Source of the DNA: an archaeon
GTDB taxonomy: Archaea > B1Sed10-29 > JAJSAI01
Reading direction: 5' to 3'
Length of the DNA: 45,488 nt
Assembly: GCA_024274695.1 (NCBI GenBank)
Contig: JAJSAI010000025.1
Span: forward strand, 1 to 45,488
The translations under genes and the position numbers were made by a program. This document shows, piece after piece, positions 8,817 to 25,720 of this stretch. Below the pieces are notes generated by a model, which saw nothing but the letters and a program-made list of their open reading frames with translations, searched no databases and was not told where the DNA came from. Position 1 is the stretch's first letter, and every line of letters begins with the position of its first letter.

Positions 8817-9404
8817 CTACCGCCTGAAGTGCCTTCTCTCGGTGCGCTCTCTGTACGGCCGGGTGAACAGGTAGTACTTTTCGTTTCCCTTCAGTTCTTC
8901 TATTATTCTTTCTACTATCATCTTTTTAGGGTCAGGGAGGAGGGGGACTCTCTCCGCCAGGTCCTTGAAGCTTTCAAAAGGCTTTTTCTCCCTCTGGGCC
9001 AGGATGTCCCACATGTGTTTTTTACCTATTCCTGGGAGGAGTTCCAGGGAATGCTGGCGTACTGTGATGCTTCCTGCCTTGTTGAAAAAGTTCACGAAAT
9101 AGTCTTCTTTTTCTTGGACAAGTTTTTCCAGCGTGTCCTTGAGTTCCTTCTGGGCGAGGTTCGTCAGCTTGTCGTACTTTATCCTGCCTTTTATGAACAG
9201 GACCTTGTCCCTTTTCTCCGGGCCTATGTACACTTTTTCTCCCGGGCTCACCTTAGCCTCTTTTTTTATTATAAGTTCTAAGAGGGTGAAGTGGTCAGTG
9301 CCTATAGCCTGGGCTATCGGTTCCTTCTTAAAACTGCCTGGATATCCTGCGGGAAGATAGTCCAGCACTATGGCGTATTCTTCCTTCAACGCTAACACCT
9401 TCAC
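8817..9404 (-). CDS. DUF655 family nucleic-acid-binding protein
   Basis: EEYAIVLDYLP, AQAIGTDHFTLLEL, FFNKAGSITVRQHSLELLPGIGKK; typical position between rpoF and ksgA. Confidence 0.92.
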   Translation of the reverse strand: MKVLALKEEYAIVLDYLPAGYPGSFKKEPIAQAIGTDHFTLLELIIKKEAKVSPGEKVYIGPEKRDKVLFIKGRIKYDKLTNLAQKELKDTLEKLVQEKEDYFVNFFNKAGSITVRQHSLELLPGIGKKHMWDILAQREKKPFESFKDLAERVPLLPDPKKMIVERIIEELKGNEKYYLFTRPYRERTERRHFRR

Positions 9405-9718
9405 AGTTTTGAGAGTATTTCAAGGATTTTGTCAACGTTTTCTATTTTTCTTTTCTCAAACATTGCCTGAACCTGCTCGGGTATCTCAGGTTTCACGTTG
9501 ACAAGGTATACTGCTTCTTCTTCAGTGAAGCCGAGTTCCATGAGCTCTTTCTTCGCTTTTTCTGTCTTGGTCGGTGCGGCCGCAAACTTGTTCAGGTAAG
9601 TGTACGTGACCTTTTGCTCGTACGTCTGCTCTTCTCTCTCCTTCTTTTCAGCGGCTATTATCTCCTTTGCTTCCGCGAGTGTGAGGGGCTTTTCCGAGAT
9701 TATTCTTTTCCCTATCAT
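9401..9718 (-). CDS. rpoF: RNA polymerase subunit F (Rpo4)
   Basis: MIGKRIISEKPLTLAEAKEII, TYEQKVTYTYLNKF; follows rpl21e. Confidence 0.9.
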   Translation of the reverse strand: MIGKRIISEKPLTLAEAKEIIAAEKKEREEQTYEQKVTYTYLNKFAAAPTKTEKAKKELMELGFTEEEAVYLVNVKPEIPEQVQAMFEKRKIENVDKILEILSKL

Positions 9719-9764
9719 TATCCATCACCATGTGATCCTTGCATTTGAAAGAAAAGCAGGTTTT

Positions 9765-10064
9765 TTAGGTTTCCTGTTTCTGCAGGTGTACCGGGTGCAC
9801 GATTATGTTCTTCCTGGCGTTCATGTCCCTTACTCTAACGATGTAGCAGGCCCCCTGCACTCCCACGACTTCTCCAGTGCGGCCGTGGAATCTTCTGTGC
9901 GGGAGTCCAGAGTGCACGCTGGGCTCTGGCTTTATGTGCACCCTGTCCCCTATTTCAAAGGATTTCAAGAAAGAGTTAACATTAGGCATGCCCCTTTCTC
10001 TGGGCGATTTGGACATTTTGCCCCTTGTCTTTGACCTAGGGCCTTTGTGCTTGTACTTGACCAT
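9765..10064 (-). CDS. rpl21e: 50S ribosomal protein eL21
   Basis: GDRVHIKPEPSVHSGLPHRRFHGRTG and VHPVHL motifs. Confidence 0.96.
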   Translation of the reverse strand: MVKYKHKGPRSKTRGKMSKSPRERGMPNVNSFLKSFEIGDRVHIKPEPSVHSGLPHRRFHGRTGEVVGVQGACYIVRVRDMNARKNIIVHPVHLQKQET

Positions 10065-10457: not shown

Positions 10458-10494
10458 AAAGGCAAGCTTTATAAACTTTATAAAGGTATATAAA
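10453..10494 (+). promoter_or_regulatory. Tandem TATA-box array upstream of tbp
   Basis: TTTAAAAA (10453), TTTATAAA (10468), TTTATAAA (10477), TATATAAA (10487); 10467-10485 is a perfect inverted repeat around a central C. Confidence 0.7.
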
Positions 10495-10524
10495 GAGTGG
10501 ATCAAGTAAAGGGAGGTTTTTCTA

Positions 10525-10869
10525 ATGCCTGCTAAGAAAACCGCGAGAACTTCTAAAACGAGCAAAAAGCCTGCCAAGAGAACAACCAAAAAGGGCAGGA
10601 AGAAAATAGAGTACCGGATTGAGAACATTGTGGCCTCAGCAAGCCTTAACGTGGAACTGGACCTGTACGCGATAGCAAGGGAAGTCCCGAACGTGGAGTA
10701 CGAGCCGGAACAGTTCCCAGGAGCTATACTCAAGCTAAAAGAACCGAGAATAACCCTGCTGTTGTTCAAGAACGGCAAGCTAATATGCGCTGGGGCGAAG
10801 AGCGAGAAGCAAGTAGAGGAAGCAATTCAGACCGCGTACAACATGGTAAAGCACTGCGTCAAGAAGTAG
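10525..10869 (+). CDS. tbp: Single-repeat TATA-binding-protein-like protein with basic N-terminal tail
   Basis: IENIVASASL..LDL..EYEPEQFPGAI..KEPRITLLLFKNGKLICAGAKSE is one complete TBP repeat; GGGAGGT SD; TAG follows the repeat's last helix. Confidence 0.88.
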   Translation: MPAKKTARTSKTSKKPAKRTTKKGRKKIEYRIENIVASASLNVELDLYAIAREVPNVEYEPEQFPGAILKLKEPRITLLLFKNGKLICAGAKSEKQVEEAIQTAYNMVKHCVKK

Positions 10870-11572
10870 GAGAACCTTTTACCCCCTCTTTTTCTTCATT
10901 TTCATCTTCTTCCCCGAGGCTGATGCCCGCCTCTTCAGCGAGCTTTTCCATTGTCTCTAGCACGGGAACGCTTTCCTCGGGAAGGGTCGTGGTTTCTTCC
11001 TCTTCTCCCTCTTCTTTTTGTTCTCCTATCCCTTGCAGCACTGTATCAATGTTCATCAGAAGCATGAGCAGTTCCAAAACGAGCATCAGCTTCATCGGGT
11101 CCTTCTTGTAGTAGTCATAGTAGACCTTGAGCAGGTTAACGTACTTGCGCTCAATGTACCTGCCCTTGTAGGACCTCAGGAGCTCCCGCAGTTCTCTTTT
11201 GAGGATCCTTGGGTCCTGAACTTCTTCAGGGACCTGTATGTTCTGCACGCAGAACTGAGCGATCTGGTGCAGCACCTCAGGGGGCATGCTAAGGACAATG
11301 TCTGGCTCCGGCAGCTTGTACATGTTCAGGTAGTAGTCTTTCTCAGGGAACTTCCCGAACAAGTCCACGGTAAACCTTCTTATTATCATCGCCCGCGCGC
11401 TGTAGTGCGTGGCATAGTACTGTTCTCCTTTCTTTAGCGCTTCCTCGGCGATTTTGCTGTTCTGCTCGTAAAAGTAGCCAAGGGCAAAGTAGATTATCGC
11501 GAGCTTGTCAGGCCTGCCGTACTTGAGCTTGCTCTTGAACTCTTTGAACTTGCTCGCAAGATCAAGACCCAT
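10859..11572 (-). CDS. Hypothetical protein with acidic C-terminal tail
   Basis: 237-aa ORF with typical codon usage, downstream of the THUMP gene and overlapping the tbp 3' end by 11 bp. Confidence 0.7.
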   Translation of the reverse strand: MGLDLASKFKEFKSKLKYGRPDKLAIIYFALGYFYEQNSKIAEEALKKGEQYYATHYSARAMIIRRFTVDLFGKFPEKDYYLNMYKLPEPDIVLSMPPEVLHQIAQFCVQNIQVPEEVQDPRILKRELRELLRSYKGRYIERKYVNLLKVYYDYYKKDPMKLMLVLELLMLLMNIDTVLQGIGEQKEEGEEEETTTLPEESVPVLETMEKLAEEAGISLGEEDENEEKEGVKGSPTS

Positions 11573-21671: not shown

Positions 21672-22082
21672 TCAGCGCCTCCTTTTCTTTGTGGTTTTCT
21701 TCTTCTTAGCAGTCTTCTTTTTGGCTGTTTTCTTCTTGGCAGTCTTCTTCTTTTTCTTAGCAGCCTTCTTCTTAGTGGTCTTTTTCTTCTTCTTTGCAGT
21801 AGCCTTCTTTTTCTTCTTCTCTTCAAGTTTTCTTATTCCGATCTTCCTCACTCTCGGCTTCCATACCTTGGAACCCATCCACGCAGGGGCATTTTCCGGA
21901 GCAGGAACTCTCTCCCTAGAACCTATGTAAATGTGGATCTTCTTCGTTCCCCTCTCCCTGAGCTCAATCCTTTTTATTCCCCTGCTCGCTGCCTTCAAGG
22001 CCGCCTGCCTCGGGCTCCTTCCAGTGAACACGTGCTCCGTGTCCTTACCATTTTTGACAAGTACGAAGTACCTCTTTTCCAT
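21672..22082 (-). CDS. Non-histone chromosomal protein MC1 with Lys-rich C-terminal tail
   Basis: MC1 signature FTGRSPRQAALKAASRG..LRERGTKKIHIY.G....AP..APAWM....WKPRVRK; about 50-aa K/A/T tail; GGAGGT SD and TTTATAAA promoter. Confidence 0.9.
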   Translation of the reverse strand: MEKRYFVLVKNGKDTEHVFTGRSPRQAALKAASRGIKRIELRERGTKKIHIYIGSRERVPAPENAPAWMGSKVWKPRVRKIGIRKLEEKKKKKATAKKKKKTTKKKAAKKKKKTAKKKTAKKKTAKKKKTTKKRRR

Positions 22083-23657: not shown

Positions 23658-24587
23658 ATGCGGGTAGAACTCATCGCTTTTGATTCCTACGGGGTAAAGT
23701 CCAGTTGCGTGAAGATAACATCTGAGGACACCAGCGTGCTCATAGACCCGGGAGTTGCGTTCGAGGCAGGATCGTTCCCGTGGAGCCTGCCCAAGAGACT
23801 CGCCATGGAAGCCAGGTACTCCAGGACAATCGAAAAACACATCCGAGAAAGCGATGTGATCGTCTTATCCCACTACCACTACGATCATCATATTCCCTCC
23901 CCCTCCTTGTACAAGAACAAGGTCCTCCTTGTCAAGGACCCTGAAAATAAGATAAACAGATCACAGAAGTCCAGAGCAAGGAGTCTTCTGTCAGGACTGA
24001 AGGCGGACGTTAGAATAGCTGATGGAAACGAGTACGAGATCAACGGGATCAGACTGCGCTTCTCAGACCCTGCATGGCATGGTGTCCCCGGAACCAAGTT
24101 AGGATGGGTTATCATGACAACCCTGGAAACAGAGGGGGTTAGGATACTTCACTCCAGCGATGTGGACGGACCAGTATCAGAAGAACAGGCAGAGTACATA
24201 ATAAAACAAAAGCCAGATCTCCTTTTCCTGGACGGGTTTCCCACGTACCTCCTGGGATACCTTACCTCTTATTACAATCTGGCGAGAGCCGTGCTGAACA
24301 CTGAACGGATTGTGAAAAAAGTGGAAAAAACGATCCTGGATCATCACCTGCTCAGGGACTACAGGTACCCTGACTTGTACAAGGTAGTGTACGAGACCGC
24401 CGCAAAAAAAGGGTACATCGTCAGGACAGCCGCGGAGGAACTTGGCAAAGAGCCTGCGGTGCTGTCAGCGTACAAAAAGAACGGGCCCACAAAGTGGACC
24501 GAATGGAGCTCCCTGACAAGAGAAGACCTGCAAGGATTTATAGAACGGGCTGAAGAAAAGAACCTACTAAAGAGAGGGTTCGGATGA
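23658..24587 (+). CDS. Metallo-beta-lactamase-fold hydrolase (UPF0282-like)
   Basis: AFDSYGVKS, IDPG, SHYHYDHH, HSSD, LDGFPTYL, DHHLLRD. Confidence 0.88.
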   Translation: MRVELIAFDSYGVKSSCVKITSEDTSVLIDPGVAFEAGSFPWSLPKRLAMEARYSRTIEKHIRESDVIVLSHYHYDHHIPSPSLYKNKVLLVKDPENKINRSQKSRARSLLSGLKADVRIADGNEYEINGIRLRFSDPAWHGVPGTKLGWVIMTTLETEGVRILHSSDVDGPVSEEQAEYIIKQKPDLLFLDGFPTYLLGYLTSYYNLARAVLNTERIVKKVEKTILDHHLLRDYRYPDLYKVVYETAAKKGYIVRTAAEELGKEPAVLSAYKKNGPTKWTEWSSLTREDLQGFIERAEEKNLLKRGFG

Positions 24588-25720
24588 AGAAAAAGAGAAA
24601 GAAGATTCAGACACGGTTAGAACACTTTGACGAAAAAGGAAGAAAGCAGAAGATGCTTGAAGAGTACGGTGTAGAGATAACAGAACCCAAGACCAGAAAG
24701 GCTGATGAGAGAAAGGCTCTTGAATGGATCAGAAGTCATCCCGGCAAGCCCGTTCCACTACAGTTCTACCGGATACTCAAAAGAATGGCGGGCCTGAAAA
24801 GAAGGGCAGGAGAACACCCAGAAAAAAGGCAGACCGTCCTGGAAGACTTTGGAGTGGAAATACCCAAACTGCTGGAAGAACAGGAGAAAACGCTCCGGGA
24901 GTACCGCAGGAATAAAAGGGAATTCGAGAGAGAACTCAACTTCAAAAGGGAACTTGCGGACGCTATACTAAAGGGAGAGTACCATACTGAGATCCTTGGG
25001 CAGGGAAGACAGTACAAGACAAAAGTGATCAAGTACAAGTACGGTAGGAAAGCGGCAGTCATCAAAATAAGCGAGCCATGGTTTCCTGAAAAGGGGATAG
25101 AGGGAGCGTCCAAAGAAGAGTGGGATGAGAAGATACGGCAGACCCAGGAGGCCATAGAAATTCATAAAAGAATAGAAAAAGCGCTTGGGCCGTACGCTGC
25201 AAGATACTACGGCACGCAGATTTCCTTCGGAAAGAACGGGGAGGTTGTCGCGGTCCATGTTATGGAAAGAGGACGTCCCCTGCAAAGGTACGTCTACGAA
25301 AAAAGGGACGGCAAGTGGGTGAAAGTAGGGGAAGTGCCTGTAAACTATGATGACATAAGAAATTCTCTCCCTGATGCTGTGCGCATTATATTTGACGAAT
25401 GCAGGGCAGGAATCCACCCAGATCCTCACCCGAGCAACCTCGCAAAACGAATAGAGGTCAGGAAAAAAGAGCCGGAGTACATGGTAATAGACACTTTCCA
25501 CGACGAGCCACTGTACGCGGGCAGGCCCAAGTTCGAGGCGTACATGGCAGTATACCTCCGCAGGCTCGCGGAACTGTTCCCAAAAGAGTACAGGAGACTG
25601 CACGAGGAAGCGTACAAGTTCATTGAAAAAGAGTACGGCAGGTACGTCATGGAGAAAGTAAAAACCCGGACAGAAGCAGAGCTCGAGAAACTCAGGAAGG
25701 CAGGAGAACTTCCTGAGTAG
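24584..25720 (+). CDS. Divergent protein-kinase-like protein with N-terminal PIP-box-like repeats
   Basis: Gly loop ILGQG, AVIK lysine, hinge VMERG, catalytic HPDPHPSNL, Mg-binding VIDT; QxxLxx(F/Y) three times at the N-terminus. Confidence 0.7.
   Translation: MKKKRKKIQTRLEHFDEKGRKQKMLEEYGVEITEPKTRKADERKALEWIRSHPGKPVPLQFYRILKRMAGLKRRAGEHPEKRQTVLEDFGVEIPKLLEEQEKTLREYRRNKREFERELNFKRELADAILKGEYHTEILGQGRQYKTKVIKYKYGRKAAVIKISEPWFPEKGIEGASKEEWDEKIRQTQEAIEIHKRIEKALGPYAARYYGTQISFGKNGEVVAVHVMERGRPLQRYVYEKRDGKWVKVGEVPVNYDDIRNSLPDAVRIIFDECRAGIHPDPHPSNLAKRIEVRKKEPEYMVIDTFHDEPLYAGRPKFEAYMAVYLRRLAELFPKEYRRLHEEAYKFIEKEYGRYVMEKVKTRTEAELEKLRKAGELPE

Follow-up and report, generated by a model that had tools for sequence, protein, structure and literature searches.

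Does an archaeon need both halves of the TATA-binding protein (TBP) on a single chain? The question is raised by a gene at positions 10525 to 10869 of contig JAJSAI010000025.1 (assembly GCA_024274695.1), a stretch of 45,488 nucleotides (nt) from an archaeon (GTDB lineage Archaea; B1Sed10-29; JAJSAI01), referred to here at its full length as the window. TBP is a ten-stranded saddle in which strands S1 and S1′ are adjacent at the centre, and it has long been supposed that its two repeats go back to a homodimeric ancestor. We know of no organism described as living on a one-repeat TBP. The gene in the window encodes a single repeat; its product, typical of the class, probably works as a homodimer and is probably the only TBP that the organism has. 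Its parts are as follows.

10525–10869, forward strand: single-repeat TBP gene, 114 amino acids (aa), TAG stop included (open reading frame (ORF) list, Pfam PF00352 and TBPs of the Protein Data Bank (PDB))
10525–10605, forward strand: N-terminal tail, aa 1–27 (sequence reading)
10606–10866, forward strand: one complete TBP repeat, aa 28–114 (PF00352 profile coverage), with strand S1 at 28–41, the stirrup EYEPEQ at 58–63, F64, F81 and a C-terminal helix
10468–10494, forward strand: three TATA-like boxes 5′ of the TBP gene (sequence reading)
10511–10516, forward strand: Shine-Dalgarno-like GGGAGG, 8 nt before the ATG (sequence reading; putative function)

A first-pass annotation of the window, made from the letters alone, had described a 114-aa ORF with one intact repeat, and the Pfam TBP profile agrees. 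PF00352 matches in a single stretch (aa 30–110, profile positions 2–84 of 85, E 2e-29) at 101.7 bits, above the curated cut-off of 22.9 and over the whole repeat, which places the protein in the TBP domain family. The two tandem repeats in one polypeptide of a canonical TBP are absent, only this one stretch being found. In a phmmer search 35 distinct PDB TBP sequences match at E ≤ 0.01, the best being 1mp9_A (3.4e-43), and the lone repeat aligns with both repeats of each chain. The motifs previously picked out, ENIV (N34, V36), QFPG (F64), LLF (F81) and EYEPEQ (58–63), are all present. N34, V36, F64 and F81 line up with their counterparts in 1mp9 and 1ais, and the stirrup EYEPEQFPG (58–66) is identical to that in the C-repeat of 1ais_A. 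From TBP structures, we take these four residues to be those that contact or intercalate into DNA and EYEPEQ to be the stirrup that binds TFB/TFIIB. Judged by its sequence, the repeat has the minor-groove contact residues, the two intercalating Phe and the acidic stirrup of a TBP repeat. All of these positions are invariant among 105 aligned single-repeat proteins (N34, V36, A39, L41, L47, E58–A67, L69, K70, P74, L78, L79, F81–K85, I87, C88 and G90).

Canonical archaeal TBPs (1mp9, 1ais, 1d3u, 1pcz, 2z8u) share this Pfam domain and are very close in sequence, and the same promoter logic of TATA box, TFB and an element like the B recognition element (BRE) is expected here. They carry two repeats in a chain of 180–200 aa, whereas the window protein has one of about 87 aa, so that any saddle it forms must be an exactly symmetric homodimer with two identical stirrups. 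Its basic N-terminal tail is a further difference, the tail of many archaeal TBPs being acidic and C-terminal. The reading frame opens just five codons 5′ of the ATG at 10525 and offers no alternative start before the domain, so the 27-aa tail must be translated.

The genome of the window (G000) comprises 825,026 bases in 32 contigs and is rated 91% complete. A six-frame PF00352 profile scan of it found the window gene as the only match above cut-off; neither the canonical two-repeat tbp nor the second half gene for which the first-pass annotation advised a search appears above cut-off, near the locus or elsewhere in G000. One TFB gene was found. The same holds beyond this genome. The class has five genomes that are at least 90% complete and carry a lone single-repeat gene (G000, 91%; G001, 95%; G004, 91%; G007, 91% in 2 contigs; G019, 96%); none of them yielded a canonical TBP, and hence no full-length TBP that coexists with the short one.

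The gene is genuine and strongly constrained by purifying selection. The congeneric genome G001 has the same gene between the same neighbours and supplies the one-repeat ortholog that had been proposed as a check: over 89 repeat codons 52 of 267 nt differ, with 48 synonymous against 2 non-synonymous codons (non-synonymous divergence, dN, 0.014; synonymous divergence, dS, saturated). The neighbours are the following.

8817–10064, reverse strand: divergent neighbours that mark the TBP locus, namely DUF655 at 8817–9404 (PF04919), an Rpo4/RpoF-like protein at 9401–9718 (PF03874) and ribosomal protein L21e at 9765–10064 (PF01157)
10859–11572, reverse strand: convergent gene of 237 aa with an acidic C-terminal tail (ORF list)

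The 3′ end of the convergent gene overlaps the TBP stop by 11 nt and therefore leaves no room there for a second repeat, as had been pointed out at the start. The L21e-Rpo4-DUF655 genes adjoin TBP in 17 of 38 related loci, with one-repeat genes across the class and with the two-repeat genes of G009 and G011; the same locus thus holds one repeat or two according to lineage.

How general is the one-repeat state? A census of the class covered 31 species genomes, whose members carry the public names Iainarchaeum or Diapherotrites, and every hit frame was read.

One single-repeat gene, 14 of 31: G000, G001, G003, G004, G006, G007, G010, G012, G013, G014, G017, G019, G021, G027
Two or three single-repeat genes, 9 of 31: G018, G020, G022–G026, G028, G029
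Two-repeat gene, 4 of 31: G002, G008, G009, G011
Gene cut by contig ends, 1 of 31: G005
No match at 1e-5, 3 of 31: G015, G016, G030 (80, 67 and 61% complete)

Eleven of these genomes are at least 90% complete, and they divide into five with a lone single-repeat gene, two with two half genes and four with a two-repeat gene. The one-repeat state occurs in 10 of the 12 families of the class and the two-repeat genes in two only (f2, f8); by distribution it is the commoner state. All ten of the 'same domain' genomes searched have ordinary two-repeat genes. A further 80 genome loci yielded a complete one-repeat gene in 15 cases and one more that is truncated where its contig ends; the census above already includes four of the 15, and the other 11 are Micrarchaeia, Micrarchaeota or Marsarchaeota by label. 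Five of these non-class genomes were searched whole and have one-repeat TBP genes only. In a large protein collection 769 clusters of 47–153 aa match at E ≤ 1e-8, some of them from contigs of 0.69–1.17 Mb, and 107 of the 122 proteins examined are complete one-repeat proteins starting with Met; several of the genes sit on contigs of 0.22–1.17 Mb.

Two copies of aa 26–114, without the tail, were modelled with a custom alignment and three controls, in answer to the homodimer model suggested earlier (protein only here). The interface score ipSAE reached 0.69, 0.69 and 0.68 against 0.01 for the best control; the predicted local distance difference test (pLDDT) of the partner was at least 90 and the runs shared at least 96% of their contacts. 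In calibration the ipSAE mark was reached by 20 of 30 proteins with solved structures as pairs of one chain and 1 of 23 with solved structures as single chains, which gives a rough guide only, given the custom alignment. The predicted interface includes residues 26, 28–41, 87–88, 94, 97–98, 101–102, 105 and 109. In the model the S1 strands run antiparallel, residue 35 pairing with 35 and 34 with 34, and the C-terminal helices add contacts; as modelled, this is the canonical interface between the two repeats of TBP. The homodimeric TBP first proposed is therefore supported computationally by selection, by its uniqueness in the genome, by the kept residues and by the predicted S1–S1 pairing. Of the two roles offered for it, main TBP or alternative and competing factor, the first fits better, there being no canonical TBP in the five genomes.

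Promoters were surveyed with a crude set of 885 ORFs from G000, from which the TBP gene itself had been dropped in favour of a longer antisense frame. AT content peaks at −30 to −24 from the start codons, which suggests that most mRNAs in this organism are leaderless. Of 401 upstream regions whose intergenic gap is 40 nt or more, 193 fit tTTTTAAA, and in the 110 sites that could be extended A makes up 47–55% at four positions just 5′ of the box, in a BRE-like manner. The TBP gene has similar boxes, TTTATAAA at 10468–10475 and 10477–10484 and TATATAAA at 10487–10494, which would act as its promoter. A strong Shine-Dalgarno sequence and an upstream promoter had been claimed for it, and both are recognizable as GGGAGG and these boxes, the latter promoter-like in appearance; GGGAGG and the position of the boxes further upstream suggest a short leader for this gene. 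Palindromic promoters were also considered as a sign of symmetry and rejected: the upstream matrix correlates at 0.93 with its own reverse complement, but a palindromic word had served as the seed of the search, and the TTTTAAA consensus is much like the usual archaeal TATA box.

On these grounds we consider it likely that the one-repeat protein is the general, homodimeric TBP of the organism, with polarity derived from TFB and the A-rich upstream element. Two copies would join S1 strand to S1 strand and so form a ten-stranded saddle of exact two-fold symmetry. The saddle would bind the TTTTAAA box about 27 nt 5′ of most start codons, and four Phe (F64 and F81 of each copy) would kink it. A single TFB would dock on the EYEPEQ stirrup that happens to point towards the A-rich BRE-like element 5′ of the box. 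With two equal stirrups on a symmetric TBP, polarity would depend on TFB and that element, and transcription would take its direction from TFB and the DNA alone. The pair of lysine-rich tails would contribute non-specific DNA affinity.

Several observations weigh against this proposal. The TTTTAAA consensus cannot discriminate a symmetric from an asymmetric TBP, and the dimer score may partly reflect the model's memory of solved TBP saddles. Nine per cent of G000 is missing from the assembly, and the gene is known from assembly sequence rather than from transcripts. Position 89 is Ala in the window protein and Thr in at least 90% of the aligned single-repeat proteins. Finally, the sole TFB gene of G000 (contig C29, about 8824–9900, forward strand) has an in-frame TAA after ...ASELKLSG, presumably early in the second cyclin repeat. 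No stop interrupts the TFB frames of G001 (341 aa), G003 (348 aa), G007 (304 aa) and G013 (318 aa), and the TAA in G000 could reflect an error of sequencing, variation between strains or a gene that is truly broken. Recoding of TAA was tried as an explanation and discarded, long same-frame open segments being separated by TAA 112 times, TGA 285 times and TAG 169 times in a crude test.

Single TBP-like domains are known from other proteins. The excerpts of Brindefalk et al. 2013 (PMC3597702) describe Halobacterium TbpA, which likewise has one domain and is very similar to full TBPs but coexists with full-length TBPs and is non-essential; no full-length TBP was found in G000. They also list (Table 3) stand-alone monopartite proteins of Thermococcales with a TBP domain, of similar size (82–136 aa) but distant from TBP and found beside a normal one, whereas the window protein is a bona fide repeat. 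The TBP-like N-terminal domain of RNase HIII places a single copy of the fold on nucleic acid (excerpts of PMC3597702 and PMC12917281); unlike the window protein it is fused to a nuclease, is very divergent and is no transcription factor. According to Brindefalk et al. 2013, most other single-domain candidates looked like misannotated TBPs. A full-text literature search, which covered few subscription journals and no supplements, turned up that paper as the single treatment of single-domain TBP proteins and nothing on lineages that have a one-repeat protein as their only TBP.

The alternative that survives best is a real one-repeat protein that is not a homodimeric TBP and acts as a monomer on nucleic acid or with a diverged, unrecognised partner. 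We regard it as improbable. Single TBP-fold domains do act alone in RNase HIII and DNA glycosylases, according to the same excerpts (PMC3597702), and the two paralogous half genes of sister families could heterodimerise. However, the saddle, DNA-contact and stirrup residues are all invariant, the predicted interface is the canonical inter-repeat one, and without a dimer there would be no TBP saddle at all, although TFB and TATA-like promoters are kept. A possible partner is a 129-aa ORF on contig C24 of G000 (24305–24691, reverse strand; L002 1495–1881) with a weak TBP-like stretch at 17.8 bits, below cut-off. It was rejected as a second half: it occurs in only 3 of the 31 class genomes, its G001 version is 40% identical and carries a stop codon, and its best PDB TBP match has E 1.3. 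The TBP-like part of this ORF is C-terminal, and the ORF itself is fast-evolving and genus-restricted apart from one faint match in G018; the gene beside it presumably encodes something like a cobalamin adenosyltransferase, judging by eye.

A homodimeric TBP would also be illusory if the gene were an assembly artefact, the assembler having jumped between near-identical tandem repeats and left an in-frame one-repeat chimera. Such a collapse is conceivable for a form known from assemblies: two-repeat genes of the same order hold runs of 78–98 nt identical between repeats, which can mislead short-read assemblers, and the G005 gene is broken at contig ends. Yet five gene calls from different sources within the genus-level group of the window protein all have one repeat, with tails of 13, 20, 27, 31 and 34 aa, and one of the five is recorded identically by NCBI, JGI, Logan and ENA. 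Among the best 120 of 2673 proteins of 62–200 aa, no two-repeat protein is more than 76% identical to the window protein, whereas one-repeat proteins 92–100% identical to it exist. The architecture is common to G000 and G001 despite their 52 differences in 267 nt, the four two-repeat genes of the class were resolved in their assemblies, nine class genomes have two distinct one-repeat paralogs at separate loci, and contigs as long as 1.17 Mb carry one-repeat genes. A metagenome scan, whose best contig was 76% identical, is uninformative on repeat collapse. Taken together, we give the artefact very little credence. We find it just as hard to credit an accessory or competing half-TBP like Halobacterium TbpA with a canonical TBP hidden in the unassembled 9% of a genome that is 91% complete: single-domain TBPs do stand beside full ones in Halobacteria and Thermococcales (excerpts of PMC3597702), but no canonical TBP was found in the five lone-gene class genomes or in the five searched outside the class, the gene occupies the locus that holds the sole TBP gene of G009 and G011, and its 2 non-synonymous changes in 89 codons are what is seen in a core factor.

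How, then, did a one-repeat TBP come about? The two repeats of a gene are 72–80% identical in the class, 47–74% in records labelled Micrarchaeota or Micrarchaeia, 34–53% in most other archaea sampled and 60% in one 'same domain' genome (G037). The two-repeat TBPs of the same order (G002, G009, G011 and G008a, the two of G009 and G011 at the locus of the window gene) differ from the window protein in carrying two such similar repeats. They contain nucleotide runs identical between their repeats of 98 (G002), 91 (G009), 93 (G011) and 78 (G008a) nt (loci L043–L046), while overall dS between repeats is 0.66 in G011 and 0.92 in G002. Identical tracts of 78–98 nt amid a diverged background point to intragenic gene conversion, which also blurs duplication counts based on trees.

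In a quick tree of 193 repeats the Iainarchaeota/Micrarchaeota group, represented by 45 single, 27 N and 27 C repeats, falls with all 99 of them on one side, split with 100% support in the Shimodaira–Hasegawa-like approximate likelihood-ratio test (SH-aLRT) from all 94 ordinary N and C repeats, which are themselves largely separate; the repeats of the two-repeat class genes fall in the clade of the window repeat. On a log-odds scale of N against C, where the mean is +115 for ordinary N repeats and −113 for ordinary C repeats, the window repeat scores +16, and +17, −12 and +11 by thirds. The first-pass annotation had seen a start like repeat 1 and a remainder like repeat 2, and a clean chimera of that kind does not emerge from these scores. 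A more careful tree of the class alone joins the N and C repeats of G008a as sisters (94/93) and gives G002 and G009 a shared duplication. A single old duplication for all two-repeat class genes was tested by constraining four N repeats together, at a cost of 23.75 log-likelihood units (p 0.035 in the approximately unbiased (AU) test); this is weak evidence against it, the constrained group having been chosen after inspection of the tree and gene conversion confounding the test. A grouping of the Iainarchaeota/Micrarchaeota repeats with C repeats of Woese- and Pacearchaeota (96/90) fails the AU test (p 0.64), the constrained tree being the likelier. Neither the log-odds score nor the AU test favours an origin from an N repeat, from a C repeat or from a chimera.

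Tandem duplication, gene conversion and deletion at a shared locus have probably turned one- and two-repeat forms into each other. The one-repeat state is one side of an evolutionary toggle and not a recent private deletion, since this locus is occupied by two-repeat genes in two further genera of the order. A two-repeat gene at this place in close relatives had been named as a sign of recent deletion; G009 and G011 do have one, in other genera, and the congener G001 does not. It is very unlikely, in our estimate, that the one-repeat TBP is no secondary reduction but the surviving form from before the duplication, that the group always lacked the differentiated N and C repeats common to other archaea and eukaryotes, and that the two-repeat genes of the group are later, independent duplications. 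The group repeats are split from all ordinary repeats and are neither N-like nor C-like, which is compatible with such a survival; against it stand species-tree parsimony and the ordinary, differentiated repeats of other DPANN. One class thus holds one repeat, two half genes, or two repeats kept alike by gene conversion. Whole lineages appear to live on a one-repeat TBP and would provide a natural model for the origin of a universal transcription factor. They make testable how a symmetric dimer bends DNA, how TFB is recruited to one side, whether polarity comes wholly from TFB and BRE, and what is gained by fusing the halves. For annotation, short TBP genes in metagenome-assembled genomes are easily dismissed as fragments.

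The tail of the window protein (aa 1–27) contains 10 K, 3 R, 5 T, 3 A, 2 S and 2 P and no acidic residue. Tails in the closest relatives are 13, 20, 31 and 34 aa long, alike in composition and different in sequence, and lysine-rich N- or C-terminal tails occur in many one-repeat clusters and in G006, G008a, G023c, G024b, G025a and G026b. The TFB of both species of the genus (G000 contig C29 and G001 contig C13; loci L143 and L146) starts with TTG and has a lysine-rich N-terminal tail of about 20–35 aa before the zinc ribbon; that of G003 has no such tail. The window also encodes an MC1 chromatin protein (21672–22082, reverse strand, 136 aa, PF05854 E 6e-28) with a C-terminal (KKTA)n tail, the most basic terminus of the 885 crude ORFs. 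The histone-tail-like N-terminus noted at first is there, but its basic tail is not special to TBP: because TFB and MC1 of the same genome carry similar ones, it is a lineage habit of DNA-binding proteins. In the simplest reading the tail adds non-specific affinity for DNA.

The convergent 237-aa protein matches no Pfam family at E 0.01 and has no usable Atlas match. A homologue of its gene adjoins TBP in 6 of the 38 related loci (G001, 77% identity; G003, G007, G002, G009 and G008a, 31–38%). Its position is kept across the order, and a functional tie to TBP may exist.

Nine class genomes have paralogous one-repeat genes, of which type A lies at the L21e-Rpo4-DUF655 locus and type B elsewhere (loci L033–L041 and L048–L061). 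Type B, with the sequence MENKYNIKIVNMVASANF..., forms a single clade (100/98); in G023, G026 and G024 it has a lysine-rich N-terminal tail of about 70–140 aa. The paralogous half genes of these sister families could form heterodimers or two kinds of homodimer.

Two further frames extend the range of the fold. On contig C8 of G008 (L047; 2925–5103, forward strand) a frame of about 716–726 aa contains four TBP repeats (PF00352 E 1.1e-71), followed by a hydrophobic stretch and a long C-terminal region without family match, and to our knowledge no TBP-repeat architecture like it has been described. On contig C1 of G023 (L051; 2868–3522, forward strand) a 218-aa frame combines a hydrophobic, signal-peptide-like N-terminus with two diverged TBP-like repeats (PF00352 E 1.6e-11 and 3.5e-6), and it may represent a non-transcriptional use of the TBP fold.

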